Position numbers and translations under genes: made by a program. A model generated the notes under the pieces. That model did not search any database. It was not told where the DNA came from and worked only from the letters and a program-made list of their open reading frames with translations. From IMG/VR virus record IMGVR_UViG_3300042387_000230, positions 3,248 through 67,247 of that record: a stretch of DNA of 64,000 nt. One strand, 5' to 3'. Within the stretch, counting starts at the first letter, position 1, and the number at the start of each line of letters is the position of its first letter. This document shows positions 23,327 to 60,257 of the stretch, one piece after another. Source of the stretch: a virus.

Positions 23327-23343
23327 AACTTACCTTCTTTCTT

Positions 23344-24450: not shown

Positions 24451-24470
24451 TTTATTCTCCTACTAGTAGT

Positions 24471-24512: not shown

Positions 24513-24524
24513 CCAAGGTTGATA

Positions 24525-28955: not shown

Positions 28956-31900
28956 TTAGGTAAGTAGACGTAGCATGGTAGCCATCTGAGAAGAGATGTC
29001 TGACTGGCTGTAAACATCACTGCCAGACATAAAACCCTTCAAATCTTTGGTGGCTTTGTCTGCGTCTTCCTTACCTATTTTTTCCTCGACCCTTTCAACC
29101 ATATTTTTCATAAGGTCTCTAAGAGCCGGAGGAAGATCTGAGAACCTCACCTTTTGAGCTTGGTTGCTAAAAGGTAGAGGTAGGTTAGAGATGACCTTGC
29201 CTAGCTCTGCAGCTGTGGCTCGGACATTCTCCAATGAAATTTTGTTTAGTGACCCTTCGTCAAGTCGGTCTAGTAGGCTTAGAAGGTCCTGACCGGCTTT
29301 AGCCGCATCCTGATAGTCTCCAAGACCACTCATCTTCTCAACTTCTCGAATCTGGCTGTTTACGTCAGCCAGTTCGGCATCGCCAAGGTCTTCTTTTAGT
29401 CTAGCTAGAACGTCTCGGAAACGACCCTTGATATCACGCGGCTGATTTACTCCAGGAATAAACTTGCCAGCCTCTACCTCAACCTTGCCGTTAGCAATGT
29501 CTTCGATATCCGTTGGCATCATATCCATAGGAACTTCATCAACCGCGAAGGTTTTTCCCAGGGCCTCCTGGAATGCAGCTAATCTGTTACGTAGATCTTC
29601 TGCACTTGCGGTAATAGATTCTGACTCTAGGTTCTTCCAGTTTTCTGGAACTAGGTGACGCTGGTTAAGCTGACGAGCACGCTTCTTGATGTGATTTCTC
29701 ACGGACTTGCGGTCCTCAGCTTTTGAACGTCCATAAGCTTGAATAGCGTTCTTTAGGTCGTCTAAGTTTCGAATCGGGTACGAGCCATCTGGAAGAGCCT
29801 TGCCTTCTTCAGCCAACTTGTTTCTGTCGTCGCGAGAGATGTATCCAAACTCTGACTTAGCTTCGTCAACCTTAGCCTTGAGAGATGCTACCTGAGCCTG
29901 AAGGTCTTCCTTAGGGGTAGTAATCTTCTCTAGGCGAGAAATTCTAGAAGCCATCTCTGCAATAGGGTCAGCCTTTAGCTTAGCTAGAGTAGATGCACCT
30001 GCAGCAACAAGAGCCATGACGGCACCTGAAGCAACGCGAGCACGAGCAATTGGGAAGCCAGGAACGTTTACCTGACAAACTGCAACAAGCTCAAGGGCCC
30101 CACGGATTGGACGCCAGTCACCAGAAGGAGCTGATGCACGAAGTGCACGAATCTGCTCCGGACGAGCATCTGGACGTAGCGAACCAGCGACCCAGATGCC
30201 GTAGGCATCCTCGCCTGCGTGAACATCAGCGATTGCCGAAGCAGTGTCGTCATAGTGCTTGACCGCTTCCATTGCGCTGGCCTCTAGAGAAGCGTGACCG
30301 CCAGCAAGAGTTAGCTGACCAACAGGAACATCAGTTCCGGCATCGGTACGGATTACTCCGGTGTGGAAGTAGGCGTAGTTGCTCTTTGAGCGTGGTGGCT
30401 TAGTGCCATATGCCATTCCAATGTGGTCGACGTGCCAAGCTGCAATGTGTCCAAATACTCTACCCATGTCGTCAACAGTCAGAGGGGTTGGGCCTTTTAG
30501 CTTAGGGTTTTCGAACCACTCGGTAGGCGGTACAACGGGGATTGCGCCAGCGACAATACCGCAAGCAACTAGTGCCTGAGCGTCCGCAGCATCCGCGTCG
30601 TCAACGTAGACTCCATCTGGAATCATGATTTCCTCCTGGTAGGTGCTGTTCATTGTTGGGTCGTCGTTTATTAGCGTAATTTTGCACTCTTGGAAAGCAG
30701 GCTTTGGTACTATTGTAGCGGCCATTACGCGGGCTTTATTTATAGTAAGTTTCTTTTTGCCTATTTCTTTGTCGTCATCTTCAGACGAAGCATCACTAGA
30801 CTTGTCCTCGGTTGCCTCAAACTTGTCCATGTCGGCAGAGATGCCACGGATAAATCCATTCTTTATAAGACGCTCTACTTCTCTTCCGTATGGCCCATTG
30901 TCTAGGACACCATATGCATTTCCGATTCCATCAATGGTTCTTTCGACCATATCGATTCGACCAACTACCACCGAGCCATTGTGCCCGTCGCCAGTTTTTA
31001 TCTGCCACAAAAGCGGAAGAGGTAACTCTCTAAGAGTGATAGAGCCTTTACTGAATTTACGACCGTCTCCAGACTCTACGCCCTCGGGAATTAGTAGAGG
31101 AATGTGGAACCTAGCCCCGCTATTTTTATAGTCGGAAGAGGCTACCATACCTAGGCGCTCCTTGGCCGATTCGGCTCTAGCGGATAGCTCGGACTTAGCA
31201 ATAATTACTGACGTAGAGTTTACTAGTTCGGTGCTGAATACGTTTCTACCACCTCGACGTTTTCCGTAGCCTTTCCTGTTGTTTCTGTCGCCGGCCCACA
31301 TACCGGTCATCTCTTTGTGGCGTAGAGCGCAGTAGCCTTTAGCGCGTGGGCCTAGGTACTTAGATAGGTTCCTAACACAGCGGGTCCAGTCTCCGCCGGC
31401 ACCCCAGCGTATCTTAAGTCCGCCCTTACCAGTGGTCCAATAACGTCGGAGCTTCTCGGCATTGCCCCTATTACGGTCTGCGCCACCGGCTGCAGTGACA
31501 GATAAAACTGATTTGAAAGTGTCCGCTAAAGTGCTGTTTTCGTCAATAGAATCAAAGAATTTATTGCCAAAAGTGTCTATAATTTCTTGGTTAGGTCCCC
31601 ACAAAACCATCATTAAGTGGTCCAAGTTAAAGATACCGGCTGCAGTTATAGTAGCGTCGTCCACCTGGGTAAGCACGTCATTTAATACGGTCTTGTCTAG
31701 AGGGACTACTGGAGGAGGAGTAGCAGACTTTAGGTCATTTAGAGTTGCCTCGTCTCTAATCCACTTTCCTGCATCTCTCTTATAAGTCATTGGCTCTGAC
31801 GAAGTAGAGCTTGCTGGGACTAGCGCAATCAAATCAAGCACAGCTCTAGGGTCATCTTCTGCAACAATAGCCATGTATAGTGGCTGAACGTCAGAAGTAT

Positions 31901-33578
31901 CTGGCGTCATCTGATAAGTCTTTTTAGCCGCCTTTTTTGTTGCAACCGGAGCCGCAACAACCGGGCTAGCCCAGCCTTCTTCATCCTCAGATACCTTTGG
32001 TCTATTCTCAGAAGCTTTCTTCCATCTAGATATCAGCGGGTGCTCTGAGTCGTCCTCAACCTTTTTCTTTGGTTCGTCTTCAGAGTCTTCTACTTCTCCA
32101 GCGGCAGTTAGTCCTGCTTCAGCAGCCGCAGCACGCTGTGATTGAACCCAACCAGACCAGTTGTAGAGTAAGTCGTGCAAATCGTTTTTGGTAAGAGAAG
32201 GTAGCGTTCCAGGAATTCTGGCGTACGGTCTGTCAATAGGAGTCCTAGGCTCGCCTAAAATACCAGACAGGTCTAGAGGCTTGTCTAGGTCCGAGAAAGG
32301 AATATTCTCCTTAAAGTCTTTTTCTTCGACCGTGCTACGAGCCGGAACTATTTGCTTAGTTCCGTCGCTTCCGGTAACTTCTACGTTGCCGTTGCCAACG
32401 TTAGCGTTTGTGATTGTACCGCGATTGGCGCTGTTATCTCCAATAACAACCCTCTGACCCTGCTTAGCGAATCGTCCCAGGGCATTTCTAGTCTGCCTAG
32501 TAGCGTTCTGAGAACGTTCTTCAGGGGTATAAACACCGTCATCCGGATTAACCGCAGCGGCAGTAAGGGTGTTGTCAATCATGTCCCAGTCAATATCGGC
32601 AGCCGCAAAGATAGCTAAACCAGCCTCTTCTTTATCGATTTCTTCAATAGAGATTCGGCTGTAAGGCTTTTGGTGTAGCTTTGCACAAACGATAATTGCT
32701 GAGTCTGGGTCGATTGGTATGTGGGACTTTTTCACAGTATCGTACGGGTCGTCTAGTGCCTTGTCATAGGTCCAAATATCAGAGTCTATCTCTGCAAGGT
32801 CGTCCCAGCATCCGTCATCCCAGACATACACGGAACCGTCTACATCAATTTTGTAGATTCGGTCAATGCCAGAGCCGTCCATTCTAACTCTGGCTAAAAA
32901 TTCTGGAGCGGCAGATGTTCCAGCATACATGGCTTTTCTAAAAGCATCTAAATCTATAGTTTCATTTGGGGTGTCTTCTAAGACGTATCCACCGGCAGTT
33001 CTAGCAGCAGCTTTTTCTTCTCGCTCTACAATAGCTCTAGCCCAACGCCACGCGGTGTCTCCACCCCAGAGTGCCCAAGCAATGCGACCGTTAGACGGGA
33101 AGTTGTCTTCGCCTGGTGACCAGCCCTTGCCCTGCTTGTCTACCTCGTGGCGTGGAAAGTATTTTGCGATGTGACGAACTTTACGGATTCCAATTTGTCC
33201 GCCCCTAGCAAGAGTGCGAGCAGTGTTTAGACCTACTGAAGTTCCGCCCCTGTCATGCTCTTTTCTCCACTCCAATGCCTTTTTGGCCTCGGACTGTGCA
33301 CCCTTAGGAATAGTGTACATTCTGTCCCCACCCGAGGACGTAATAACATTTACGTTCAAGTCTGAGAGCGATGCCCCAGCAAGCTCGTATGCAGAGCTAG
33401 GAATCTCCGAGCGGTCTAAGGTAAACCAGTCTTTAGAAGAAGAAAGCTCTTCAAGGTCGCCGGACTCTACAATAAGGTTGCAGTCTAGGTCGAGGACGGC
33501 CGCGTTGTCGCCAACGGCGAATAGCGCAAGAGAGCCATAGCTACCCATATATTGCGTAGTATTTTCGGCACCACTCAT
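28956..33578 (-). CDS. Multi-domain capsid maturation protease
   Basis: Directly before the capsid gene. HK97-type protease-like region EG..SGDGR...LPLLWQ..GH..SVVVGRI...GISAD; second conserved region GRVFGH...SGDWR...VNVPGF; accessory domains AWALWGGD, KIRWG..GDWTRC and ALPDGSYPI. Likely start MSGAEN at 33578. Confidence 0.8.
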   Translation of the reverse strand: MSGAENTTQYMGSYGSLALFAVGDNAAVLDLDCNLIVESGDLEELSSSKDWFTLDRSEIPSSAYELAGASLSDLNVNVITSSGGDRMYTIPKGAQSEAKKALEWRKEHDRGGTSVGLNTARTLARGGQIGIRKVRHIAKYFPRHEVDKQGKGWSPGEDNFPSNGRIAWALWGGDTAWRWARAIVEREEKAAARTAGGYVLEDTPNETIDLDAFRKAMYAGTSAAPEFLARVRMDGSGIDRIYKIDVDGSVYVWDDGCWDDLAEIDSDIWTYDKALDDPYDTVKKSHIPIDPDSAIIVCAKLHQKPYSRISIEEIDKEEAGLAIFAAADIDWDMIDNTLTAAAVNPDDGVYTPEERSQNATRQTRNALGRFAKQGQRVVIGDNSANRGTITNANVGNGNVEVTGSDGTKQIVPARSTVEEKDFKENIPFSDLDKPLDLSGILGEPRTPIDRPYARIPGTLPSLTKNDLHDLLYNWSGWVQSQRAAAAEAGLTAAGEVEDSEDEPKKKVEDDSEHPLISRWKKASENRPKVSEDEEGWASPVVAAPVATKKAAKKTYQMTPDTSDVQPLYMAIVAEDDPRAVLDLIALVPASSTSSEPMTYKRDAGKWIRDEATLNDLKSATPPPVVPLDKTVLNDVLTQVDDATITAAGIFNLDHLMMVLWGPNQEIIDTFGNKFFDSIDENSTLADTFKSVLSVTAAGGADRNRGNAEKLRRYWTTGKGGLKIRWGAGGDWTRCVRNLSKYLGPRAKGYCALRHKEMTGMWAGDRNNRKGYGKRRGGRNVFSTELVNSTSVIIAKSELSARAESAKERLGMVASSDYKNSGARFHIPLLIPEGVESGDGRKFSKGSITLRELPLPLLWQIKTGDGHNGSVVVGRIDMVERTIDGIGNAYGVLDNGPYGREVERLIKNGFIRGISADMDKFEATEDKSSDASSEDDDKEIGKKKLTINKARVMAATIVPKPAFQECKITLINDDPTMNSTYQEEIMIPDGVYVDDADAADAQALVACGIVAGAIPVVPPTEWFENPKLKGPTPLTVDDMGRVFGHIAAWHVDHIGMAYGTKPPRSKSNYAYFHTGVIRTDAGTDVPVGQLTLAGGHASLEASAMEAVKHYDDTASAIADVHAGEDAYGIWVAGSLRPDARPEQIRALRASAPSGDWRPIRGALELVAVCQVNVPGFPIARARVASGAVMALVAAGASTLAKLKADPIAEMASRISRLEKITTPKEDLQAQVASLKAKVDEAKSEFGYISRDDRNKLAEEGKALPDGSYPIRNLDDLKNAIQAYGRSKAEDRKSVRNHIKKRARQLNQRHLVPENWKNLESESITASAEDLRNRLAAFQEALGKTFAVDEVPMDMMPTDIEDIANGKVEVEAGKFIPGVNQPRDIKGRFRDVLARLKEDLGDAELADVNSQIREVEKMSGLGDYQDAAKAGQDLLSLLDRLDEGSLNKISLENVRATAAELGKVISNLPLPFSNQAQKVRFSDLPPALRDLMKNMVERVEEKIGKEDADKATKDLKGFMSGSDVYSQSDISSQMATMLRLLT

Positions 33579-33664
33579 GTCTAGAATCCTCCGATAGCGG
33601 CGACAAGCCAATGGCTATTCATATAAACCTAATCTATTGTATCAGTACTAATACTTTTGTTATT

Positions 33665-47397
<13,733 letters not shown>

Positions 47398-47398
<1 letters not shown>

Positions 47399-47676
47399 TA
47401 ATTAATCTCCTGAGAGCCGTAGAGTTCCTGATACTTTTCTGGATTTTTCTGGACCCAGTCGGAAAAGTAGTCTAAATCTTCGCGCGTCATACTAAACAAG
47501 TTTTTTGCTGGGTCTACGCCAGTGCGCAACTTAAGCTCTTCCCTAGCGTCTTCATTTTTGACAACTTCCCACAAAAAATGAAGGTCAGAGTCCGAAGCGG
47601 TTTTTAGGTCAATTTCAACGTCCTGAGCAGAAACGCCGGTAGTCAGTCGTACCGTAATTTTTTTACTTTCAGACAT
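47398..47676 (-). CDS. Small acidic protein, paralog A
   Basis: AREELKLRTGVDP...DLDYFSDW; TAGTG overlap with the start of the 4577-aa gene. Confidence 0.75.
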
Positions 47677-47948
47677 TATTCGCTCGACCCTTCGTCACTA
47701 GATTCAGCTACAATTTTATCTCGTTCCAGGGAACTCTGATTTTTTCTCCAGTTAATAAAAAATTCTAGGTCGCTTGGAGTGTAGTCTTCTACAGATTTGT
47801 ACGGGTCTATCCCTATACGGCTCTTAAGTTCTTCTCTCGCCTCTGGAATATCCATTCTTGCGTATACACGCAACTCGGGCTCGGAGAGCTCGGAAAAGAC
47901 GACATCGACTACTTTAGACCCGTCCGGGCCATCAATAATTATTTGCAT
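47676..47948 (-). CDS. Small acidic protein, paralog B
   Basis: AREELKSRIGIDP...DLEFFINW; AAAGGA RBS; TAATG coupling. Confidence 0.75.
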   Translation of the reverse strand: MQIIIDGPDGSKVVDVVFSELSEPELRVYARMDIPEAREELKSRIGIDPYKSVEDYTPSDLEFFINWRKNQSSLERDKIVAESSDEGSSE

Positions 47949-47976
47949 AGGTATCCTTTGTGTAAGCAGATACAGC

Positions 47977-48108
47977 TTACTGGGCGATTTCTGACTTGTC
48001 TAGTTCTAAATCATAATCCTCTGCGTCGTCCGCATTAGGAGAGGCAATTCCCAACCAATACTCTGGGTCGGTCTCAGGGTCGAAGTTATCAGGGTTGTAG
48101 CGGTCCAT
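47977..48108 (-). CDS. Very acidic 43-aa protein
   Basis: MDRYNPDNFDPETDPEYWLG... preceded by a CAGGAG RBS. The track's longer start lies inside the terminator. Confidence 0.55.
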   Translation of the reverse strand: MDRYNPDNFDPETDPEYWLGIASPNADDAEDYDLELDKSEIAQ

Positions 48109-48138
48109 AGCGTCTCCTGTCAAAAAGTAATCCTTTAT

Positions 48139-48147
48139 AGTATAGCA
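48139..48147 (-). promoter_or_regulatory. Extended -10 promoter element
   Basis: TGCTATACT (TGnTATACT) on the minus strand, just downstream of the terminator and upstream of the small ORFs and the 4577-aa gene. Confidence 0.55.
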
Positions 48148-48165
48148 AGGAATGCTAAATTTGAT

Positions 48166-48202
48166 AAAAGTAAAGCCCCCTTTCGGGGGCTTCACTTTTT
48201 TT
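48166..48202. terminator. Intrinsic terminator, possibly bidirectional
   Basis: AAGCCCCC-GAAA-GGGGGCTT stem-loop (minus strand) with T-runs on both strands, directly after the 3282-aa gene. Confidence 0.8.
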
Positions 48203-48203
48203 G

Positions 48204-51200
48204 TTATCCAGGAGTTACGGTTGCATCTCCATCTAGATTTTTCTTTAGCTCGGCTAGAATTCTCATTCTGTCTCCAAGACCAGTCTCGCCGCTTAGAGTT
48301 ACGAACCAGTACTTGTTTCTTCCGTGGAAGATGAACGTGAATGGACGCTTCTTACCTTCCGGAGTAATTCCGGTTGCCTTGATGATTTCTTTGTTGGCCG
48401 TGGTGTTACCCATAAGAATTACACTCTCGCCTTCGATACGGTAGTTAACGCCCTTACCAAGTCCGCCAGAAGTTCCGTCTTCGCCAGTAATCTCGCCCTG
48501 AGGCATATCAATAGCTTCTACGGTCTTAGCTTCGGTTTCTTCGTTCAGGTCAACCATGCCATCGACAGATGCCCAGTATCCACCAAGAATGTGCTCTACA
48601 GCCTTGCTAGCTAACGACGCAGCTTCGTGGAGAGCGTTAGGGTCGCCCTTTAGCCACGTAGCCCACGACTGAACATACGCGGCAACGTTGTCAATCGAGG
48701 TGTCGACGTTCATCATCTGAGCCAGAATGGCAGAGCCGATTTCAGCGATTAGCTCCTCGCGAGCACGAACATCCTTGTGGGTGCCATAGTTCTCAAGAAG
48801 GTCTTTGCGGTCTAGACGGTTCTGGTGTCCGGTGCTGTGGGTAAGCTCGTGGAACAAGGTGTCTAGGTGCTCTTCGGTGCTGTTGAACTGCTCTCTTAGC
48901 GGCAGACGGATAACGTCTTCAGACGGGCTCCAGTAGGCACTGTCCTGAGCAACGTACTGAATTGGTGGCTTGTCGGTGTAGCTGTCAAGCACGATGTTCT
49001 CTACCTCAGAGATTGCTGGTGGGTCCTTGCGTACAAGCTTAGGAAGCTCTACGCCCTGGATTTCGTCTTCGTTGTAGACGATGTCTAGGCCCATCTTGGC
49101 AAACTTCTTAGTTACCGTTCTGGTCTCAGTCTTGGTCTTGTCAGGGTTGTCTGGGTCCGGAACCTGTACTTGCTCTTCCTTGTCGTACTTCTTGGTCGAC
49201 ACGAAAGTAATAATTACGCCAGGGTCCTTATCATCTTCACCCTTGTTGACGTAACCACCGAGCTTGCTGATGGCGTTCTTGGTGTACCATCTAGTGCCCT
49301 TGTAGTCGCGGACCATAGAGGCAGCCAGGAGAGACAACAAGTTTAGTCCTCTGTAGACACGGCCTGTAGCACCAGAGGTAGGTAGGAACCCGCCTTCTCC
49401 GGTCCAAGGCTTCTTCCAAGGAATGATTCCTTTCTCCATAGCCTCGAGAATGCTGGCAACGACCGTGTTAACAACTTCTTGGTTGCTCTTGTTGGTGCTC
49501 TTGATTTCTTCGGTCAGGTCAACCTGGATAGGGTTTTCGTCTGAGCCTGGCTCACCTGGCTTAGGTGTTACTGCCTGGTTGTCATCAATGTTGTCGGCCG
49601 CATCGAATGCCATAAGCATAAGGTTGGCGGTCTGAGTGCCATCTGACTCGCCTAAGCGTAGAGACAGTTCTTCAATCTTGGCTCGTAGCCCTAGAATCAT
49701 GCTTCTATTCTTACCTGCTGGGCCACCAAGAGAACCGTCTTTATAACGTAGCGCCCATCTCTCAGCGTAGGTTAGAAGTTTAGGGTCTAGGTTTCCGCTG
49801 AGCAACTGCTGAAGTGCTTCTTTAGCTGTAGCAAGATTACTCTGGTCTATCTTTCTAAAGTAGTCAGGGTCAGCTTGGATATCAGCAATTTGCTGCTCTA
49901 GTGAAGAAATCTGTCTTTCTAAGTCCTCGTCGGGGAGGTTGGTGACTTCCCTATCGGCTGGCTTGCGAGAGAGTTGCTCCTTAGCTTCATCAATAGACTT
50001 CTCAATGTTAGCAATCATTTGCTCGTTGTAAGCCGGGTAGCTAAACTCTCCAGGCTTGCCTTCGAACCGCATTAATTGAGGATTATTCTTCTTACCAAGA
50101 AATTCATCGCGTTCCTTTAGATCTTCTTCTGCATATTTTTCTTCATTAGTAAGAAGATCGTTTAGTTCCTCTTCATATCGTGCTATGAATCTATTAAGGC
50201 CAGCAAGCATACGGTTTTTTAGGTCCTCTTTATTGCCTACCCAATCGGGGTCAGCAATTTTATCCTCGAGCTCTCCCCTTTCTGCATATAACTCAGGTAG
50301 ATAGCTTTCAATATCGGCTATTCGGTCCTTCCTCGCCTGCGCCCTACGGGCTGGGGCTTCGGCTATAGATTTCTTTCTTGCCTCTTCTGCCTTCTTTAGA
50401 TTTTTCTTATATTCCGCTATTTCTGCTTTTCTTTCCTTTGCCCGCTTTGATTGCTCGGCTTCGGCTAGTTTTTCTTCGAGAGCTTTTATTTCGGCCTCGG
50501 CCTTTTCTTCTTCTTCTAGCTTTGCTCTCTCTTCTTTAGTTAACTTTGCCTTTTCTTTCTTTATTTGTGCGGAGACGTCTTTTATACTCTTCTTTATTTC
50601 GGCGGCTTGCTCATCGTTCTTGAGCATTTCAGCTAGATCGAGTTGTTCTTCTAGGAATTTCTTATTTCCCTTTAGTACGTCTATTGGATTCGCGTAGTCT
50701 CTAGTTATCTTGTCTACGTCTGGACGGTTGCTAGGCTTCTGCTCATCCTTCTTAGCTTGCTTTTCAGGGTCAGTAGTTAGGTAGAAGCTTAGTCCACCCG
50801 TGTATAGAGTCTTCTTAGCTCGGGTGAGGGCTACATAAGCTAGACGTATCTCCTCGTCTTTTTTCCACTCAGGCTCCATCTTAGATGTGTCTTTTCCTTC
50901 TGCCTCAGCATCTGCAACTCTGCTTGCGTGCTTTTCTGGAGTTTCGAAGTCGTCCCAGATAACAACGTTGTCGTACTCTAGACCCTTAGCACCGTGAGCG
51001 TTAGTAACAAATATGTCCGCGTCCGAGCCACTCAGTGCGCCTACCAGGTCTTCTATCATTTTAGTGACTGAAGCTGCTTTGTCTTTGCCTTCGATAGGCT
51101 TGTCATAGTAGAATTCAAACTTTTCTTTTCCAGTGACTACGTTCTTACCTACAGACTTTCTAGTTCCTACGTAACCTTCACCTTTCAAAGTGTATTTGTT

Positions 51201-54200
51201 GTGCTTAGTTCCATGTATCGGTATTCTAGAATATGGAACCCACTTGCCACTGTCCGAAATTCTTAGATTATCGCCAACTACCTCATATTTTAGATTGTTA
51301 CCAATATCTCCGCTACTAGGAATATTACCAGTTTTAGAATCCTTTTCGGGAACGCTAAATCCGTCTACCACGGCCCTAAGGCTACTAACTATCTCTTCTA
51401 GTAGGCGGTCTGGACCCTTAACACCTGCATTTTTAGCTAGACTGCGACGTAGAGCGATTACCTCCTTAGCTTCTTTATCTTCAAACTCTTGAGCTGCAAT
51501 CTCCACTTGCTGCCAAGTCTTAAACTTAGACAAAGGTCTGTAGATTCTAGACGGCCTACCCCTGTCTGGGTATAGTAAGTACATAATTGTTTCAAACACG
51601 TCGCGGTACCTTTGTCTGTATTCCAGTAAAGAGGCAAACTTTAACCAAGGATATGATTTAACAAGGTCGCTTCCAGCGGTAAGCACTCCTAGGTTTTTCC
51701 TAGCAATTACTACGTCTATCTTTTTATCGGTATAGCTCATAGTCCTGATGTTGTCATCAAGAATCTGGGTATCAAGATCTGGATTTCCTATGATGTCTGT
51801 TTTTACACCCAAGAAGCTAAGAACCTTATTGGCAAGCGCAGCTACAGCTGGACCGAATCGGTAACTCTGGGATAGAGGTAGAGTTACGTCTCTTCCCATT
51901 TCTCCAAGAGCGTCTACGGTTCCACGGAACTCATAAATTTGCTGGAAGGTGTCACCTACAATAATTATTTGAATTCCGTTGTCATACTTAGTCTTTTGCT
52001 TTTGGAATATGTCAAAAATTGCAGGGTTCATGTCCTGCGCCTCATCTATAAGAATAAACTTTGGCGCTTTAAGAAGACCATTAACGGTGTACTTATTGTT
52101 TTCTGGATTTTTATCAGAGATAGACAAGTCAGGCTCAGTTAATTGGAAGTTTTTTATCAAATCATCGTGATTGACTAGCAACTGCTCCACTCCGGGTTTG
52201 TATTCTGCAGTTAGCTCAGCCCACAGCATCTTAGCCATTCTTATTAGCTTAGGTGGGAATATAGTCTCGTCTGGTACTCCGTTATTTTGAAGTTGCTTAG
52301 GGTCTTGGTATTGGTTATAATCAAAAGGACTTTGATTGTTTTTATCGAAAAAGTGCTCTGTAGATATTTCCTTGTCTGCAGTAAGAATCCAAGCATCTAG
52401 AGCACCGACTGCAAGCTGAGTAGCCTCTAAAGCAGACATTTTCACTCCATTGCTTAGAGTTATCTCCGTAAACCCAAACATATCTCTTACGGCAGGATAG
52501 CTAGTACGCCAGATAGAATCAAGTTCTTCAGAAACGCCTTCTTGCTTTTTCTTTTTAAGGTTGTACTCGTCTACCTGCATTCTTTGTGTCATTTTATTGT
52601 TGACTGCTGCATTGTAAGCCATAGAACCAAATGTACGAGACTCCATGTTTCCTGGCATCACTCGGTCAGCCTCTAGCTGGTTATGCTTGTTGAAAACAAA
52701 ATATGAACCGTGCGTGACAGTTTTTTCTATTGTATCTTTCATCTGTTTAGCTAGAGCAACTCCCCTCATCATGGTAGTTTTTCCAGCGCCCGCGTAAGCC
52801 TGAACAACTAGGTTCATGTTGAGAATTGCTGCCTTAATAATGCGCAGACCTTGCTTGGTAGGCTTTGGCTCGACATAAGAAACGTCAAGATCAAACTCGT
52901 CAATCTTTTTTACAGCCGCTTTTTGTTCCGCTTTGGTAGGTATCTTAGGTTCGGTCGGAGGGAAAGCCATAAACTGAGGTCTATTTTCCTCTTGGCTTTG
53001 GCTAGCAGCAATACCGTTAATAATTCCTGCAGCATTCTTTACAAGAACCTCGGCTTCTACGGAGCCGTCACCGGCTTCCTGCGTAGTGAATAGCTCAACC
53101 GTTCTCTTTGCTATGTAGTTAGCAACTCGGGCTTTGTAGTCTGCAGCGTGGAAATCATACTCATCTTTGTTCCACCCGTTAGTAGATGCTTCATAGTCAA
53201 AGTTTGGTCCGTTTTTAGCTCTACCGTCCAGTCCGCGCTGAAGAATGTTCTTGAGAACTTCGTAAGTAGACACAACGTCAGAGTCAGCTTCGTGGCGTCC
53301 GTTGTTCGATAGGCCGAAGTAGTTTACAAGAGCTTCAAGGGTCTGCGAAGACCTCTGAATTCCAGAGTCATCAATGAAAAATGGAGCGTCTGGGTTTGTG
53401 TGACTCCACTTAGGCATAATGTAACGAGCTAGACCTAGGGTGTCAATAAAACCGCCATATTTAAATTCTGGCAGGCCAGCTTCGGTTAGGGTTCTGTTAA
53501 GAACTTCGATGTCAAAAAGGAATCCGTTGTGTCCAGCAAGAATTGAACCTTCAGGAATGTTTTCCAAGAATGTTCTCATGGCTTCTTTTTTGCTAGGCTG
53601 AGTCGACAAGAAATCGCTATTTACGCGTCCTCCTTGGCCGTTACCAACGTTAGATAGAACCCACGAGCTAATCTTTGACCCTGGGTTAATGTAGGTAGAC
53701 ATCTGGCTGTCAATTTTTCCGTTAGAAATCTTAACGATAGCCATCTGAATAGGGTCGTTTTTAATTTCTGGGTCAGCTGGCTTAAAGATACCCGTGGTCT
53801 CAAAGTCAAAGACGTAGATATCTTTAGAGTAGAGGAAGTCTACCAAGTCTTGGTAGTTGTCAATGTTCTTAACTTCGTCAAGCGCCGGTCCTACAAAAGC
53901 AGGAGGATCAAAACGCGTCATCTTTGGTTCCGGGTTGCTGTCTTTAAATGACATAAGCTGAGCACGTGTTGTTATGGCTCCAGCTTTGTAAATTCCAATA
54001 GCCTTGTTTACTTCTGCAGACAACTCCGTTAAAATCTCTAAGAGCGCCTTAGATGGACGATTAAGTCTTCCGTAGGTTTCTACCTCGCCAGCGTCAAGTA
54101 GGCCATCGCGAACCCTAGCTAGGACTTCATTTACGTCTTCAGGAGTAGGTAGGTTTTTGTTCCTGAGAGTCATCTTAGGTTTCAAGGTGCTGATATCAGT

Positions 54201-57200
54201 GATAGCGCCCTGAATTATTTTTCTGCCTTGAGCAGTAACTGCTCTTTCTCTCAGCGCATCGGCAAGCATTGCGTGCGTTTCATCTAGAATGGCTCTAATA
54301 ATTCCTAAATCAATCTGTAGACCAGATTTTAGAATGGTAGCAACTCGAGCATCCTCGAGAATTCTTACATCTTCGTCTAGGTTCTCTTCTTGTACTGCGA
54401 CTGGTCTGCCCTGCCCTACAGGGCTCATTAGTCTTTCGTAAGCTTGTTTATTGTTTGCCCACGTGTCGTAAGGCAAAATTAGTCCATAGATTGCCTCTAC
54501 ATACTTCCGCGCTCTAAGGTAGTCTTCACCACCGTCTATGTCAACTTTAGTAAACGCAACGTAGGCATCAAACGCATTAACTAGCCAGTCTTCCTGACCT
54601 ACTTTTTCAGGTCTAGGAGTGTAGCTCTCTAGAGTGAAGTTGTCGTCTTGGAATGCACGCCTGACAGCCGCTTCAATGGCGTCCTGGTTTTTGTACCAAT
54701 CTGGCAACTGCATACGGTCAATTGGGTACCCAAATAAAATAGCCTGGACTACGTTACCGCCAATGTTATCTGGAAGCAGTAATTTTTTGTCTCCTACGAT
54801 GGCCTCTATAGGAAATACAGTGTGATACGGAGTTCCGTAAAAAATGCTAAGATCGTTGCTTGCTATTTGTTCTCTGTCGTCTATAAGGTCGGGCTCGAAA
54901 GGCTTTGGTACAGGTCCGTAGAAAACTGGAACGTCATCCGCTTGATTGTAGGTCTCGCTGGTGCCGTCTTCAAACAATACAGCATAAAATCCATCTAGTT
55001 CACCAATGTAAGAAATGACCTTAGGCACGCCATTAACTACAACGCGATTGCCAACCTTGAGAATACCTGGGTTGACGTAATCAACATTTAGTGGCGACTC
55101 TGCTTCCGGCTCCTCGGTTGAATCTTCAGGAGCTGGCTGGTCGGCAACTGGAGTAGGCGCTGGCTCGGCTGTAGGAGTGGGGGTAGCAGGAGCCGCGTTC
55201 TGTATCGGGCCGTCTTCTAGCTTTCGAGTAGGGACGTAGTTTTCAGGCACAGCAATGCTGCCGCGTATGCTCTCTGGAATCTTGTCTAGAATGTCGTCGA
55301 TTGGCATCGAGTTGATGGTTCGATAGTCAAGCGCCGTCTGCCAGTAGCTGATTTCTCTAGGTCTTAAACTTTCGATTAAGTTTTCGCTTGCTTCTCGTGC
55401 AGTTAGGTCCGGCAGTTTACTAAGTATTTCTGCTATTTCTTTCTCAGACAATAGTCCAGGAGTGTTTACTACTCGCTCTATAGAAGACAGCTGACGAGGG
55501 TTAGCTCCGTCTTTACCTAAGTTGGTGTAGTATGTCAGTGGGTCTTGAGGCTGGTATTTGTCCTTGTACGGAGCTTCATCACCTTCGTTTATCCAGCTTT
55601 CTAGGGCCGCGCTTGTCATAGTGCGGAACTCTTCTTGGAAATTAGGGTAGTTTTTGTCCTGGTCATCTCCTTCGTCAATTAGATCTTGGAGTTTTCTATT
55701 TACAAGTATTGACTCAACCTTAACTATCTGAGAGGGAGTGGGTCGACGAGCGGCATCTACATCCGACTCCAAGAATTGAGGGACAGGCTCAAATTGGCCC
55801 TTCTTGTCGGCAACTTCCTGAGCTGTAATTTTGTCTTCAGCACGTCTGCCCCAGCCCCATGACGCGTTGATGTCCTTAATAATCTGCTCAACTTCAGCAC
55901 CTGGCAGGTTGTAAAGGCTGTCAAATATTTCTTTAGCTAGACCCTCTTGGCCGGCTGGCGGAGTACGTTTTGCTAGCTGGGCCAGCACAATTTGTCGTCT
56001 GCCAGGGGCGGCTTTTCCAATGTACTTTGGATATTTACCGTCTGGAGATCTCTCAGGGTTTTGAGGCTGCGTAGAGTTGATGATGTCCGCAAGTGCGGCA
56101 GCTTCAGCTAAGGTGTAGTTTTCTGGATTCAAATACATGTCGTCAATTAGGCGACCAATGCTTGGGTCATTGATAATGCTTCTATCGAAAGCCTGGTGGG
56201 TAGGCCCCGTAATTTGACGTGATAATTTGTGCTTAGTGTCATTTTTGTAAGGGCTTACGTAAGAAACTGGAGAATCGTCTGGGGAATTGCCAGCTTTCTC
56301 TAGACGATCTCTGTAATACTGAGCGTCTTCTTTAACTTTTGCCTTTAAATCTTCAAAGGCAACATCATCGCTTGGGGTAAATCGCATGAATGGCGGTCGA
56401 ACACTGTCCATTCCTTCGGCGTCCCAGCTGACGGTCGGCAACTGATTGTTAACAGAGGCAATGATATCTTTAACATCACTCCAGCTAAATCCAATACCGA
56501 TTGGCTCCATGTGCGTAGCAGACGCGGTTAGGTCATAAACGGTGAACGCGTCTTCAGCAATGGATGGCTCGTAAAAAAGAATGTCTTGACCATTAATGTC
56601 GTCAAAGTTGTAAACAGGAACAACGCTTACAGTTGCAGGGCCAAACGTAACGTAGTTATTGCCGTCCTTGCTCTGATAGTGGTTGTCAATGACTTTACCC
56701 CAGTCCTCTGGAACGTCAACATCAGGGTCAACAGGTACGTACGGCTCTTCTGGAGTGTCCTCTACTTCTGGCTCTTCCTGAGGTTCTGGCAACTCAGCGA
56801 CAGGGGTGCCAGACGTTGGCTCGTTCTCTGTGTCCGGGTAGTTGCGATCTTCCTGAGTAGCAAGTTGCTGAGTGGATGCCCAGTCTTGGGCATAACCAAC
56901 TACTTCTTCCTGGCCGCGCTTGCTTGAGATGAGCTCGTAGACTGGCTTGTCCGGGTTTAGCTGGTCAGTGCCAAACTGGCCGATAATCTTTGCGCCAAAC
57001 TTTTGCTGAGCTTCCGCAATGCGCTTCTGAAGTGCCTCGTCAGGTTTGTTGTACAAGCTAGCCTGGTAGCCGTCGCCGGTAACAAAGTTGCGGTTCGGCT
57101 TGACTTTGCTGGTTAGGCCACTTACTGTAGCTGCGACCTTAGTTGGGTACCAGCTGGTAGGAAGGTCCTTGCGCTTTAAATCTTTAATGTCAACAAAAGG

Positions 57201-58052
57201 AACGTTGGAGTTCTTAGCCATAGGAACTAGGTTAGATACAGAGTGTTCTGGAAGAATGGCCTTGAAAGTGTGAGTGATTTCAGACGGAACGGTGTAGATA
57301 CCGTTCTTGAAGCCCTTAACGTTAGTGACTTCAATGTCGATACCGTTAGGGTCATTCTCTGGAATACCAGCAACCTTACCAACGATTGAGTAAATGTTAG
57401 AACCCTTGCGGACGTAGAAGCGGATACCGCCACCCATCTCGGCAAATTGACCCTCGTCATCACGGCGCTGGCGGTTTGCACGCATTCTGCGGTGCCATGA
57501 AGAGTTTTTACCTGCATACGGGTTACCGAATGCAACTAGAGGCTGAAGAGTTAGCTCTACCGGAACCTGGTCAGCTGCAAGAGCCTGTAGACGTACCATG
57601 TTGAATGCGTAGTCAACCGAGTATGGGTTGCTAGCGTAGACGGCAGCAACGATTGCACGTGCCTCGTCAGACTTGATACGTGGGTCTGATGCAACCCAGT
57701 TCGCTGTGAGCGTACGCAGGGTAGCCGCAGGTAGGTCGTGCTGAGCGGTCGAGCTTGGGTGTCCTAGCGGAAGCAAATCGGTGTGAGACATTTCTCCGTT
57801 TGCCGAAGGGCCCTCTAGTGCAAGAGTGAGGAAGTTTTGAACTTCTCGCAGAGCATTAAAGCACTGGACGTCGATTTCTAGTGACGCAGAGGCAACAAGT
57901 GCTCGCTCTGCAACCGTAAACACAGCCTCGTCAGAAACGGTGCGACCTTTAGGTGCGTCAACAAGAGCTGACTCGATAATGTCAATGATTGAATCTTTAA
58001 GTGACTCGTCTGGAGTGTTGTTACGGTCAAACTCTTCAATAAAGTTACTCAC
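48204..58052 (-). CDS. Giant polyvalent protein (3282 aa): DEDDh exonuclease, UvrD-like SF1 helicase, coiled coil, ArdC-N + zincin (MPTase)
   Basis: FDFETTG/HNGFLFD/HEADSD; AYAGAGKT/DEAQD/GDTFQQIY/SYRF/HGAKGLEYD/AYVALTRA; IPWKKPW/GRVYRGLN/HELTHSTGH/EELIAEIG. Confidence 0.85.
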   Translation of the reverse strand: MSNFIEEFDRNNTPDESLKDSIIDIIESALVDAPKGRTVSDEAVFTVAERALVASASLEIDVQCFNALREVQNFLTLALEGPSANGEMSHTDLLPLGHPSSTAQHDLPAATLRTLTANWVASDPRIKSDEARAIVAAVYASNPYSVDYAFNMVRLQALAADQVPVELTLQPLVAFGNPYAGKNSSWHRRMRANRQRRDDEGQFAEMGGGIRFYVRKGSNIYSIVGKVAGIPENDPNGIDIEVTNVKGFKNGIYTVPSEITHTFKAILPEHSVSNLVPMAKNSNVPFVDIKDLKRKDLPTSWYPTKVAATVSGLTSKVKPNRNFVTGDGYQASLYNKPDEALQKRIAEAQQKFGAKIIGQFGTDQLNPDKPVYELISSKRGQEEVVGYAQDWASTQQLATQEDRNYPDTENEPTSGTPVAELPEPQEEPEVEDTPEEPYVPVDPDVDVPEDWGKVIDNHYQSKDGNNYVTFGPATVSVVPVYNFDDINGQDILFYEPSIAEDAFTVYDLTASATHMEPIGIGFSWSDVKDIIASVNNQLPTVSWDAEGMDSVRPPFMRFTPSDDVAFEDLKAKVKEDAQYYRDRLEKAGNSPDDSPVSYVSPYKNDTKHKLSRQITGPTHQAFDRSIINDPSIGRLIDDMYLNPENYTLAEAAALADIINSTQPQNPERSPDGKYPKYIGKAAPGRRQIVLAQLAKRTPPAGQEGLAKEIFDSLYNLPGAEVEQIIKDINASWGWGRRAEDKITAQEVADKKGQFEPVPQFLESDVDAARRPTPSQIVKVESILVNRKLQDLIDEGDDQDKNYPNFQEEFRTMTSAALESWINEGDEAPYKDKYQPQDPLTYYTNLGKDGANPRQLSSIERVVNTPGLLSEKEIAEILSKLPDLTAREASENLIESLRPREISYWQTALDYRTINSMPIDDILDKIPESIRGSIAVPENYVPTRKLEDGPIQNAAPATPTPTAEPAPTPVADQPAPEDSTEEPEAESPLNVDYVNPGILKVGNRVVVNGVPKVISYIGELDGFYAVLFEDGTSETYNQADDVPVFYGPVPKPFEPDLIDDREQIASNDLSIFYGTPYHTVFPIEAIVGDKKLLLPDNIGGNVVQAILFGYPIDRMQLPDWYKNQDAIEAAVRRAFQDDNFTLESYTPRPEKVGQEDWLVNAFDAYVAFTKVDIDGGEDYLRARKYVEAIYGLILPYDTWANNKQAYERLMSPVGQGRPVAVQEENLDEDVRILEDARVATILKSGLQIDLGIIRAILDETHAMLADALRERAVTAQGRKIIQGAITDISTLKPKMTLRNKNLPTPEDVNEVLARVRDGLLDAGEVETYGRLNRPSKALLEILTELSAEVNKAIGIYKAGAITTRAQLMSFKDSNPEPKMTRFDPPAFVGPALDEVKNIDNYQDLVDFLYSKDIYVFDFETTGIFKPADPEIKNDPIQMAIVKISNGKIDSQMSTYINPGSKISSWVLSNVGNGQGGRVNSDFLSTQPSKKEAMRTFLENIPEGSILAGHNGFLFDIEVLNRTLTEAGLPEFKYGGFIDTLGLARYIMPKWSHTNPDAPFFIDDSGIQRSSQTLEALVNYFGLSNNGRHEADSDVVSTYEVLKNILQRGLDGRAKNGPNFDYEASTNGWNKDEYDFHAADYKARVANYIAKRTVELFTTQEAGDGSVEAEVLVKNAAGIINGIAASQSQEENRPQFMAFPPTEPKIPTKAEQKAAVKKIDEFDLDVSYVEPKPTKQGLRIIKAAILNMNLVVQAYAGAGKTTMMRGVALAKQMKDTIEKTVTHGSYFVFNKHNQLEADRVMPGNMESRTFGSMAYNAAVNNKMTQRMQVDEYNLKKKKQEGVSEELDSIWRTSYPAVRDMFGFTEITLSNGVKMSALEATQLAVGALDAWILTADKEISTEHFFDKNNQSPFDYNQYQDPKQLQNNGVPDETIFPPKLIRMAKMLWAELTAEYKPGVEQLLVNHDDLIKNFQLTEPDLSISDKNPENNKYTVNGLLKAPKFILIDEAQDMNPAIFDIFQKQKTKYDNGIQIIIVGDTFQQIYEFRGTVDALGEMGRDVTLPLSQSYRFGPAVAALANKVLSFLGVKTDIIGNPDLDTQILDDNIRTMSYTDKKIDVVIARKNLGVLTAGSDLVKSYPWLKFASLLEYRQRYRDVFETIMYLLYPDRGRPSRIYRPLSKFKTWQQVEIAAQEFEDKEAKEVIALRRSLAKNAGVKGPDRLLEEIVSSLRAVVDGFSVPEKDSKTGNIPSSGDIGNNLKYEVVGDNLRISDSGKWVPYSRIPIHGTKHNKYTLKGEGYVGTRKSVGKNVVTGKEKFEFYYDKPIEGKDKAASVTKMIEDLVGALSGSDADIFVTNAHGAKGLEYDNVVIWDDFETPEKHASRVADAEAEGKDTSKMEPEWKKDEEIRLAYVALTRAKKTLYTGGLSFYLTTDPEKQAKKDEQKPSNRPDVDKITRDYANPIDVLKGNKKFLEEQLDLAEMLKNDEQAAEIKKSIKDVSAQIKKEKAKLTKEERAKLEEEEKAEAEIKALEEKLAEAEQSKRAKERKAEIAEYKKNLKKAEEARKKSIAEAPARRAQARKDRIADIESYLPELYAERGELEDKIADPDWVGNKEDLKNRMLAGLNRFIARYEEELNDLLTNEEKYAEEDLKERDEFLGKKNNPQLMRFEGKPGEFSYPAYNEQMIANIEKSIDEAKEQLSRKPADREVTNLPDEDLERQISSLEQQIADIQADPDYFRKIDQSNLATAKEALQQLLSGNLDPKLLTYAERWALRYKDGSLGGPAGKNRSMILGLRAKIEELSLRLGESDGTQTANLMLMAFDAADNIDDNQAVTPKPGEPGSDENPIQVDLTEEIKSTNKSNQEVVNTVVASILEAMEKGIIPWKKPWTGEGGFLPTSGATGRVYRGLNLLSLLAASMVRDYKGTRWYTKNAISKLGGYVNKGEDDKDPGVIITFVSTKKYDKEEQVQVPDPDNPDKTKTETRTVTKKFAKMGLDIVYNEDEIQGVELPKLVRKDPPAISEVENIVLDSYTDKPPIQYVAQDSAYWSPSEDVIRLPLREQFNSTEEHLDTLFHELTHSTGHQNRLDRKDLLENYGTHKDVRAREELIAEIGSAILAQMMNVDTSIDNVAAYVQSWATWLKGDPNALHEAASLASKAVEHILGGYWASVDGMVDLNEETEAKTVEAIDMPQGEITGEDGTSGGLGKGVNYRIEGESVILMGNTTANKEIIKATGITPEGKKRPFTFIFHGRNKYWFVTLSGETGLGDRMRILAELKKNLDGDATVTPG

Positions 58053-58055
58053 TTG

Positions 58056-60257
58056 TTATTCTTTCTCTTGCTTTGGAAGTAAGTCGGCGTCTTTGCTATC
58101 GTACAGGTTAATAGCTAGGTCTGATGCTCTGGTGAATGGGTCTTCGCCCTCGGTAACGCCCCTCTTCCACGCAGCGCGGAATACAGGGAGTGCTTCGTAA
58201 CCTAGGCCAGCATACTCAGTCAACGCGTAGATAGCGTCTTCAGGAGTTGCGTATGTTTCTGGAGATTCAATTTTGACAGTAAGTAGGCTTTCGGCATAGA
58301 CAGAGTCAAGGCCGGTGCTTCCAGACGCAGTTACGCTACTCTTAGGGTGTGACGCTGGTAGCAAATCGTTGTCGGTGGTGTACTTAGGGTTCTTAGGGCT
58401 TCCAGACTTTACTAAGTGTAGGAAAGCGTTAACGCGAGCCATAGACCACGAAGCACGGTTCTGGTCTGGACGGTGTGAGGTTGAGAACGCACCTGCGCCA
58501 CGGCGGTAAACGGCCTTAAGCTTTGATAGGGAGACTTTCTTGCCGGCAGAGTCAACGCTGTCGTTGTGCTCTTTGACCTTGTTACGTAGAGACTCTTCTA
58601 CAGCCTTCGAGAAAGTAATCTTCTTCGCGCCAGCTGCTGAACCCTTCTTGTTTTTATCCGAGCCCTTGATTTGGTCTTTCTTAGGGGCTGGCTTTGAGCC
58701 TGCGGTTGCAGAAAGAGCTGCGGCTTCGTCTGCCGGTACGCAGTTAGGAACCATCTTGCCGTTCTTTTCTTTCATGCCAACCTGAACGTAGCCATCCCAG
58801 CAAGGACCGTCCGAAGCAGCAGTAACTGCTTCTTCCTTTTCTACGTCCTCGGTGATTGGACCGCCAGCTGCCCAAGCGTTGCAGGTACGGCTAGCGGCGC
58901 ACTTGAAGTCAAGAGCGGTGCAGTAGCCAAGCTCAGCCTGATCGATTGCATCCCATGCGCTCTGCTCACCAGAGCCACCCTCGGCAATGCCGGTCTCGAT
59001 GCAGTCAAGAGTCTTTGGACGACGGTCGAAGAATACACAGTTGCCACAAATGCTCTTGCTTGCCTCAACTGGAGTAATCTTCCAGCGGTCTGCCTTCTCC
59101 TGCCAAAACTCGGTGTTTGCCTCGTCAGGGTTTAGTGGGCCGTAGCCAACGTTGTCGATTGCGTTCTGACGGTTCTCGATGTTTAGAACGATGTCTTGGG
59201 TTGCAGGTGGGCACTTGCCTCCGTAGTCTGCGTCAGCGGTAATGCTTTCGCTCTGTAGGGTTACAGGTCCCTTACCCTTTTTAATCTTAGACATGTCGAG
59301 CACTTCGGCTGGAGCCCCTGCTCCACCTGAGAACTCTCCAGGGAAATACTCGTGGTCTCCGGCGGTCTTGCCTTTCGGTGCCTTAGCCGGGTCTACTGAG
59401 CCCTCTGGAAGCACTGCAAAACGGCAGTAACCCTCCGGGTCAACCTTAAACGCAACGACGGCGCACTCTTGGCCTCCACGGAAGAGAACACAGTTGCCAC
59501 ACTTAACGCCCATCTCGGCGTATGGGTTGTCCTCAGGCTCGTGGTAGTCGGCCCAGATGCCGGTCTGGTCTTCGTCAAACTTGCCGTACTTGTCGGCAAT
59601 CTCGATTAGTGCCTCGGCTAGGTCCTGCTCTTCGGGGACTAGGTGTCCAGCAGCAAGCAGAGAGGTACGAATTGATTCAGGGGTAGGCTGAAGTTCTGGT
59701 AGCGAGTCCGAGTTATCGTTGTCAACTACTTCTAAAAGAACTTCAGCCTTAGATTTTCCCATATCAAGGTTCATGGTCTGAATCTGCATTGAGTCTGCGC
59801 CAATCGTGGTACCAATCTTCCAGCTCCACTTAGAGTGCGCGTCGATACGGCCAGCTGCCCAGTCTGCGATACCCTGCATGTTGATTGCACTGGCAATGTT
59901 GAAGATATCCTCAACGCAGTTCTTAAGAACTAGGTTTGCCTCGTAGAGGTTAGCTGCCATCTCCATTGGGTCACCCGCTGACGGCTTTGAGTCCAAGCAA
60001 GCAAGCATAAGGAACTGGTCCAAGCCGTGAGGAGCGTCGAAGCCGATGATACGAATGTACTCTGCAATGCGGTCTTCTTCTCCGCTCCAGTCTTCGTAAA
60101 TCTCGCCAAAGAAGTCGTGGAACTGAGTAAACTCAGGGCCCTTGACGTTCCAATGGTAGCCGTGCGCCATATACTGCGCAACAACAGTAGTGCCGAGGAA
60201 TTTGGCTAGCCAGCTAGCTAAGCCTTCCTTACTCAGGTCGTACGATTTTTCATTCAT
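58056..60257 (-). CDS. Dps/ferritin-like domain fused to Cys-rich and other phage head-associated domains
   Basis: HGYHWNVKGPEFTQFHDFFGEIY...DRIAEYIR Dps signature; CGNCVLF...GYCRF; CGNCVFF...KCAASRTCNAW; CWDGY...VPNCVP; LKAVYRRG...WSMARVNAFL. Confidence 0.8.
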   Translation of the reverse strand: MNEKSYDLSKEGLASWLAKFLGTTVVAQYMAHGYHWNVKGPEFTQFHDFFGEIYEDWSGEEDRIAEYIRIIGFDAPHGLDQFLMLACLDSKPSAGDPMEMAANLYEANLVLKNCVEDIFNIASAINMQGIADWAAGRIDAHSKWSWKIGTTIGADSMQIQTMNLDMGKSKAEVLLEVVDNDNSDSLPELQPTPESIRTSLLAAGHLVPEEQDLAEALIEIADKYGKFDEDQTGIWADYHEPEDNPYAEMGVKCGNCVLFRGGQECAVVAFKVDPEGYCRFAVLPEGSVDPAKAPKGKTAGDHEYFPGEFSGGAGAPAEVLDMSKIKKGKGPVTLQSESITADADYGGKCPPATQDIVLNIENRQNAIDNVGYGPLNPDEANTEFWQEKADRWKITPVEASKSICGNCVFFDRRPKTLDCIETGIAEGGSGEQSAWDAIDQAELGYCTALDFKCAASRTCNAWAAGGPITEDVEKEEAVTAASDGPCWDGYVQVGMKEKNGKMVPNCVPADEAAALSATAGSKPAPKKDQIKGSDKNKKGSAAGAKKITFSKAVEESLRNKVKEHNDSVDSAGKKVSLSKLKAVYRRGAGAFSTSHRPDQNRASWSMARVNAFLHLVKSGSPKNPKYTTDNDLLPASHPKSSVTASGSTGLDSVYAESLLTVKIESPETYATPEDAIYALTEYAGLGYEALPVFRAAWKRGVTEGEDPFTRASDLAINLYDSKDADLLPKQEKE

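Follow-up and report, generated by a model that had tools for sequence, protein, structure and literature searches.

The 64,000-nucleotide stretch considered here (positions 3,248 to 67,247 of IMG/VR virus record IMGVR_UViG_3300042387_000230, hereafter the window) represents most of a 67,247-base viral contig with a CheckV completeness estimate of 41%, and all of its genes lie on the minus strand, to which every coordinate below refers. Three of its proteins, two giant polyvalent proteins (giants 1 and 2) and a prohead-protease fusion, carry copies of one homologous module of about 90 residues, which consists of a basic helix, a near-invariant linear motif and a small predicted barrel with a weak likeness to SH3 and Tudor domains. 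The module is a widespread, so far unannotated domain family. With a probability of about 0.5, we read it as a portable N-terminal tag by which proteins are directed into the procapsid as it assembles.

The starting point was an initial annotation, made from the letters of the window alone, that had noted four similar short peptides in these proteins. Its coordinates were correct: when the window is translated in six frames, the pattern R[DN]..G[RQ]F appears at exactly these four places, as RDDEGQF in giant 1 (57444-57464), RDRFGRF in giant 2 (47243-47263), and RNALGRF (32469-32489) and RDIKGRF (29418-29438) in the protease fusion, and the peptides agree with the letters first given for them, but on the reverse complement. 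In 29 minus-strand open reading frames (ORFs; 20,577 residues) the four occurrences compare with a mean of 0.027 and a maximum of 2 over 2000 shuffles. As the pattern had been chosen post hoc, more weight is carried by independent profile tests. A profile built from 15 metagenomic sequences, none of them from the window, matched giant 1 (E 9.8e-39), giant 2 (E 6.5e-16, profile positions 10-95) and the protease fusion (E 5.5e-5, positions 12-49), and no further ORF among the 38 minus-strand ORFs searched. When protease-type copies (9 rows) were aligned with giant-type copies (17 rows) by hhalign, the probability was 97.4% and E was 1.4e-11 over 78 columns. Pairwise comparisons within the window are far less telling, since BLASTP finds the two giants alike only at E 0.009 (37% over 75 residues) and gives no match between the protease copy and a giant, and on those grounds one might suspect a chance resemblance, or a low-complexity artefact with no shared function. 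That suspicion is refuted by the two leave-out E values for the giants, the hhalign result, the 302 database representatives described below and the failure of any of the 2000 shuffles to reach four sites, and its remaining probability is negligible.

The three copies span residues 176-269 of giant 1 (57246-57527; E 2.8e-41), residues 30-118 of giant 2 (47045-47311; E 4.2e-30) and residues 355-439 of the protease fusion (32295-32549; E 3.0e-21). The expectation that the likeness between the giants would continue for several tens of residues past the motif was thus borne out, the shared region being about 90 residues long. Of the four sites, three share the full module, while the fourth, QPRDIKGRF, which lies within GVNQPRDIKGRFRDVLARLKEDLG, shares just a nine-residue core with it (hhalign E 0.0077, probability 5%). 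This bare motif, which we call type B, is nevertheless kept in all eight aligned sequences, including that of the window, and it heads a helical C-terminal domain (28959-29444) that has no barrel. In Actinomycetia phage DSL-LC01, the type-B motif and its helical domain form a separate gene of 183 residues.

When 145 of the 150 strongest database hits are aligned, the consensus of the module reads G-G-N-S-x-A-A-R-S-A-R-A-K-L-Q-R-R-D-R-x-G-R-F-A-E-M-G-G-G, with R/Q and F/W alternatives in its G(R/Q)(F/W) core. The Q and the G after E-M are each present in 145 of 145 sequences and the D in 144 of 145, and the F is exchanged for W in 28; the helix is Arg-rich, with the consensus AARSARAKLQRRDR. 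In giant 1, the core linear motif QRRDDEGQFAEMGGG occupies residues 195-209 (57426-57470) and holds these invariant columns. AlphaFold2, given an 18-row alignment of the module, predicted a short helix, an invariant stretch with a predicted local distance difference test score (pLDDT) below 50, and five strands with a pLDDT of about 77, in keeping with the small beta-rich domain that had been proposed to follow three of the motifs. Its model of the first 278 residues of giant 1 is helical over residues 1-168 (pLDDT about 90) and drops below 50 over residues 170-207, the region of the LVAF site discussed below, the basic helix and the motif, before the barrel begins (residues 209-263). In neither model does the motif dock onto the barrel in cis; it is joined to it by G-G-G only. 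Because the motif lies outside both of its folded neighbors, and because its conservation is residue-specific, it looks as would be expected of a peptide that docks into the pocket of another protein. The barrel itself resembles solved structures weakly, with a best Foldseek E of 0.043 (SGF29 Tudor and SH3 domains) and VIA-align Z scores of 5.2-5.7 for Tudor, chromo and SH3-type domains. Foldseek searches of the module and giant 1 N-terminal models against PDB and BFVD gave nothing at E<=0.001, and VIA-align scored no higher than a Z of 5.9 across both models, its matches being small barrels and helical bundles of a generic kind.

The helical region at the start of giant 1 (residues 1-168; 57549-58052) represents a conserved domain of about 170 residues with an invariant D-L-L-P..H-P and often with a site of the form h-T-A-S (h, hydrophobic) inside it; of the best 150 hits, 89 have this domain ahead of the module. 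Library and fold searches produced neither a family match nor a specific fold match for this domain, which could be a pro-domain that is cut off by the protease.

The extent of the family became apparent when the module profile was run against 1.84 billion cluster representatives, of which 502 matched at E<=1e-3, 302 at E<=1e-10 and 11 at E<=1e-30. The best 150 hits, to which our detailed counts refer, are for the most part very large proteins: 107 have at least 1500 residues and 97 at least 2000, with a median of 2449 and a maximum of 7004. Their first module begins by residue 40 in 54 cases, at residues 41-130 in seven and at residues 131-230 in 89, never later, and more than one copy is present in only three. 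The idea that the motif might be a repeated inter-domain linker was rejected, as a regular expression for its core hit just three additional sites in 353,631 residues outside the module, against 1.6 expected from shuffling. Precomputed Pfam assignments for the 57 carriers of 171-2000 residues comprise PI3/PI4-kinase-like domains (nine), ADP-ribosyltransferases (nine), DUF5824 (four), exonucleases (two), DUF3626 (one) and an S78 protease (one); 31 of the 57 have no Pfam domain, and all 57 are named "hypothetical protein" at most. For the module itself, Pfam, PHROGs and NCBIfam offered no model, only sub-threshold noise (DUF7746, Phage_depo_C, aRib, FIMAH), and a search of the ESM Atlas gave no usable match. 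The 2017 work of Iyer et al. on polyvalent proteins reportedly contributed LPD families to Pfam. Literature searches and the available passages of PMC5512222 yielded no published description of the module, although the supplementary lists of that paper, which those passages do not include, may name it.

The genomic placement of the module is consistent as well. The genes of the window run, in the order of transcription, from a small terminase-like protein (62673-63188) through the portal protein (60267-61988; phrog_776, 1e-110), a 733-residue protein with a Dps/ferritin domain and DUF5824 (58056-60257), giant 1 (48204-58052), two small ORFs, giant 2 (33665-47398) and the prohead-protease fusion (28956-33611) to the major capsid protein (26792-28822; phrog_777, 4.7e-78). 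The portal and major capsid genes are therefore the upstream and downstream boundaries of the module-bearing genes, and the full 67-kb record has the same three copies, all of them between the two. It had been suggested that matches to a profile of the leaders should be confined to head genes, and this was the case in the complete genomes of four related phages, DSL-LC01, Cece, A3Wally and Atuin, where 10 of 10 profile matches fell between the portal and major capsid genes. In these phages the module heads the giants, and it is also present within the protease fusions and at the start of an extra 466-residue protein that follows the DSL-LC01 portal. Among metagenomic sequences, an IMG/VR scan produced 33 loci, all of which have a large ORF that contains the motif, and in nine of the ten loci examined a phrog_776 portal is directly upstream of the module-bearing giant; the tenth has a large terminase upstream and an unassigned ORF of 483 residues. 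A pattern scan of prokaryotes (185,579 species, one genome each) returned 244 pattern matches and no relative, a result that is limited by the pattern and does not imply that prophages with the module are absent.

The two giants are ordinary members of the polyvalent-protein class (Iyer et al. 2017), as judged from their ORFs, translations and Pfam matches. Giant 1 (3282 residues) contains a DEDDh exonuclease (RNase_T), a UvrD-type helicase, ArdC-N (ArdcN, 4.2e-18) and an MPTase-PolyVal zincin (8.7e-29), and giant 2 (4577 residues) a DEDDh exonuclease (RNase_T), an ADP-ribosyltransferase (ADPrib_exo_Tox) and a PIF1-type helicase. They thereby show what is typical of the class, many unrelated domains in one polypeptide with the hallmark ArdC-N and MPTase-PolyVal among them, and they also have its genomic context, flanked by the phrog_776 portal and the phrog_777 capsid protein with a terminase-like gene upstream.

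The third carrier is the prohead-protease fusion, which has 1551 residues when read from a TTG start, the frame used for all residue numbers given here. Its serine protease region (residues ~823-1253; 29853-31145; phrog_859, phrog_18402) is indicated by the match of the fusion to the phrog_18402 head maturation protease (1e-54), with a lesser one to phrog_3244 (2.5e-4) and a score against PF04586 (S78) of 20.4 bits, the cut-off being 21. Many of the 985 phage records that match the fusion are annotated as capsid maturation proteases, and eight cover at least 80% of the protein; these full-length relatives are in DSL-LC01 and seven Microbacterium phage records, and phages of Arthrobacter and Gordonia have partial ones. 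In the database, the fusion of the window has 1540 residues and begins 11 residues later, so that the ATG 11 codons downstream is a likelier start than the TTG (region 33579-33611). In DSL-LC01 (19965-24884 of its locus), the fusion is annotated as three consecutive coding sequences, each called "capsid maturation protease", the third starting just before the type-B motif; the layout is either a real split or the result of frameshifts in a metagenome assembly.

Each of the three modules has a short site with alanine ahead of it, as the initial annotation had recognized: LVAF in giant 1 (residues 172-175; 57528-57539), ITAG in giant 2 (residues 17-20; 47339-47350) and LTAA in the protease fusion (residues 349-352; 32556-32567), the last being ITAA or MVAA in relatives. 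Most of 15 aligned homologs keep a site of this kind before the module, in the form hydrophobic-hydrophobic-Ala-(Ala/Phe/Gly), and in homologs of giant 1 it reads h-h-A-F/A. Sites of the same type are also common in the capsid protein and the protease fusion, and one near the N-terminus of the portal is invariant; this recurrence makes them good candidates for the cleavage site of the prohead protease. If so, the module, being downstream of the putative cut, would remain on the mature protein, and the invariant portal site suggests that the portal, too, is trimmed. In the portal the site has the form R-x-h-T-A-A-A-x-Q (R34, A38-A40; residues ~34-42) and comes after a variable leader of 30-70 residues (loci L009-L037).

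How might such a module work? It is confined to head genes, it is N-terminal and usually single, and it is attached to unrelated cargo and shared with the protease, and in these respects it behaves as an address label. As for the cargo, its domains (ArdC-N, MPTase-PolyVal, helicases, exonucleases, ADP-ribosyltransferase) are those of injected effectors. The proposal of the initial annotation, an addressing module comparable in role to the T4 capsid-targeting sequence, is partly supported by the distribution, but the T4 analogy extends to role only. In the mechanism that we envisage, the invariant motif would dock to a conserved site inside the procapsid, which might be on the portal or on the capsid protein, at its inner face or its scaffold domain, and this docking would draw both cargo and protease into the shell. 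The protease would then cut at the hydrophobic-x-Ala sites just upstream of the module and release an N-terminal pro-region, and the cargo, with its module retained, would be kept in the head until it was ejected with the DNA. The bare type-B motif before the C-terminal helical domain of the protease would share the docking site. Docking of the module to the procapsid, packaging and the upstream cleavage are all putative steps, deduced from sequence and from predicted structure.

Several points weigh against the reading of the module as a capsid-loading tag. The 733-residue Dps/DUF5824 protein, encoded in the midst of the head genes, is without a module, though four DUF5824 proteins elsewhere have one, so either it is not packaged or some proteins of the head module have no need of the tag. 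The basic helix would suit DNA binding equally well. With the putative cut upstream of it, the tag would stay in place, whereas the T4 signal is cleaved off. The type-B site, with its nine-residue match, may be unrelated to the module. Lastly, a profile search of a fifth genome, that of Gordonia phage GodonK, gave no match, and its protease genes have no motif, so that a protease can function in its absence; what GodonK does have is a divergent look-alike (HPRGADGRW followed by strands), spotted by eye and below the detection of the profile. The look-alike is at the N-terminus of gp67 (13702-14001 of the GodonK locus), which reads EALHPRGADGRWIDKLGSVKW and continues into strand-like segments, with the core spacing of the module and H-P replacing Q-R. 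A tblastn search with this variant found only 11 Gordonia phage records. The variant may connect the module with a wider putative motif of other phage proteins, HPRD..GRF or more loosely HPR..G[RK][FW], a term that does not occur in the paper on MuF toxins.

Other explanations of the module are considered less probable. It might be an ejection leader or a binder of the DNA end, whose Arg-rich helix holds on to packaged DNA or the portal channel, so that its role would be in delivery, with the N-terminus of each giant exiting through the tail first, and not in procapsid loading. The strictly N-terminal position of the module in all of the best 150 hits, the arginines of its helix and the upstream site, which implies that the module stays on the mature protein, would all accord with this, and there is a parallel in the P1 proteins DarA and Hdf, which, according to the available passages of PMC12810830, bind capsid and DNA and exit with the DNA. 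We nevertheless think it unlikely, as the protease fusion, for which there is no obvious need of ejection, also carries the module, and what is conserved is a set of particular residues (Q, D, G, F/W, A, G-G-G), not just a pattern of charge, which is better suited to a pocket in a protein than to the backbone of DNA. There is also a variant that joins loading to launching, in which the peptide would dock at the procapsid portal and so hold the giants and the protease fusion with their N-termini at the exit channel. This, too, we regard as rather improbable, but were it true, it would account for the way in which the head takes up a set number of proteins of 3000-7000 residues, limited by twelve portal sites, and for why the module is at the N-terminus, the end that would leave first, ahead of or with the DNA, and it would supply a general handle with which designed proteins could be loaded into actinophage heads and delivered into cells.

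Less probable again is that the motif serves maturation and not addressing, as an exosite or junction for the prohead protease, which would cut at the nearby hydrophobic-x-Ala or within the motif. All four motifs do have an h-h-A-(A/F/G) site 14-27 residues upstream, sites of this type are found again in the capsid protein, in the protease fusion and, as an invariant feature, at the start of the portal, and the fusion has two motifs of its own. However, the portal and the capsid protein possess the sites without the motif, each giant has a single motif despite its many domain boundaries, some members (Atuin gp71 and several database hits) begin at the helix with no site upstream, and a folded barrel would be unnecessary for an exosite. 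We give slightly less credence still to a co-assembly domain, in which the motif of one protein would bind the barrel of another and so chain the giants and the protease fusion together into a single internal body, leaving contact with the capsid to some other element. SH3/Tudor-type barrels, to which the weak fold matches of the module belong, are typical peptide binders, the G-G-G tether leaves the motif undocked on its own barrel in the models, and a phage has several module proteins that could be linked in this way. The fold matches are, however, weak (Foldseek E>=0.04, Z<=5.9), and the type-B motif has no barrel.

There are several precedents with which a capsid-loading tag may be compared. 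The capsid-targeting signal of T4 is a short peptide that is removed by the protease and is said to bind the scaffolding core, whereas the MuF protein of SPP1 binds the portal, and the cargo-loading peptides of encapsulins are short, conserved, usually C-terminal peptides that dock enzymes to the inner face of an HK97-fold shell. The encapsulin peptides are unrelated to the module in sequence and have no attached barrel, so that the likeness is one of principle only. With the signal of T4 IPIII the module shares more: both are N-terminal and portable, both are linked to a prohead-protease site (a putative one for the module), and both are on proteins that are, or for the module would be, packed into the head and injected. 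Yet the module is not a short peptide directly before the protease site that is removed on maturation; it has about 90 residues with a folded barrel, an unrelated sequence and a putative cut upstream, so that it would be retained, and it is shared with the protease.

The N-terminal capsid-targeting signals of T4 IPIII and P1 DarB are established, and the first 30 residues of DarB, a 250-kDa anti-restriction protein, suffice to load a reporter into the capsid (PMC9024508, available passages). Like the module, the DarB signal is on giant cargo of the polyvalent type, and it directs this cargo into the capsid. The authors report no consensus among the N-termini of the P1 Dar proteins in the available passages of that paper (PMC9024508), and those of another have P1 loading depend on DarA-Hdf bound to the inner capsid surface (PMC12810830). 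The module, in contrast, is conserved in sequence across hundreds of protein clusters, and no adaptor like DarA-Hdf has been identified for it. For phage polyvalent proteins in general, Iyer et al. 2017 (PMC5512222, available passages) argued, or predicted, that they are packaged in heads and enter the host together with the DNA. In those same passages no shared N-terminal addressing domain is described for them, and no Pfam model, the LPD families included, covers the module.

The remaining comparison is with the MuF/SPP1 gp7 domain (PF04233), a head-associated carrier of polyvalent proteins and MuF toxins that is encoded beside the portal (PMC5512222 and PMC5576092, available passages). Like MuF, the module is found by the portal gene and carries variable effector domains, and in Arthrobacter phage Beagle it is MuF that takes the same N-terminal place in the homologous protease fusion, but the module is much smaller and has no MuF signature. 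PF04233 was not found at E<=0.01 in the three carriers or at E<=1 in the 67-kb record, although the same search found it in eight of 14 control genomes. The presence of MuF in the module's place in Beagle, together with its absence from this record, suggests that the module does MuF's job. The Beagle protein in question, gp25 (4777-7440 of its locus), begins with the MuF domain (..NCRC..), continues with a 2H-phosphoesterase-like segment (HVTLGYP) and has TITAA and SLTAA at its junctions, so that the grammar of its putative cleavage sites is the same and its carrier domain is different. In its proposed function, the module comes nearest to MuF and to the targeting signals of T4 and P1 DarB, and it is a member of none of them. 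What is new is a sequence-conserved, domain-sized tag that is common to cargo and protease in hundreds of protein clusters, from uncultured and cultured actinophages alike.

These comparisons also indicate why the module is of interest. Experimental knowledge of how very large proteins are loaded into phage heads comes from a few cases, the T4 internal proteins, P1 DarB and the MuF carriers, and the module is an easily recognized mark on hundreds of cargo families, with proteins of up to 7004 residues, and on the prohead protease as well. It gives annotators a means of calling packaged, injected effectors in uncultured actinophages, it makes the question of loading one that a simple reporter fusion could address in cultured phages of Microbacterium or Arthrobacter, and it could itself serve as a handle for loading foreign proteins into phage heads.

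Some further features of the head genes of the window deserve mention. The 733-residue protein matches Dps through PF00210 (1.6e-10) and has Cys-rich stretches besides; it is unusual to meet a Dps-like protein among head genes. At its N-terminus the major capsid protein is extended by about 250 residues, with a helical start followed by some 150 residues of very acidic, low-complexity sequence, and sites of the form h-[TV]-A-[AGS] (IVTAS, AITAG, KITAA) ahead of its HK97-type body. The extension resembles a scaffold (delta) domain that has been built into the protein, and it is opposite in charge to the module helix.

The giants have a second short motif, [LFM]-M-[ARKSQ]-[FY], often with R-P-x before it, which lies between recognizable domains (e.g., PQFMRF, RPQFMAF, LQLMAF and PSLMKF) and occurs six times in giant 2 and five times in giant 1, as opposed to 0.29 and 0.16 times in shuffled sequence. 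It was not found in the protease fusion, the Dps protein or the capsid protein, and it is scarcely enriched among the best 150 database proteins (24 occurrences, 15.5 expected). These may be inter-domain processing sites, and the LVAF before the module of giant 1 looks to be of the same class. The giants also share a helical repeat some 65 residues long (..Q-[IL]-x-S-[IV]-x-R-R..G..LP-x-L..), which no Pfam model matched in a scan of the carriers and which is present in at least four copies in giant 2 (residues 479-560, 905-953, 1204-1266 and 1670-1733) and in one in giant 1 (residues 851-937), the copies being related at BLASTP E values of 6.5e-14 to 8e-5.

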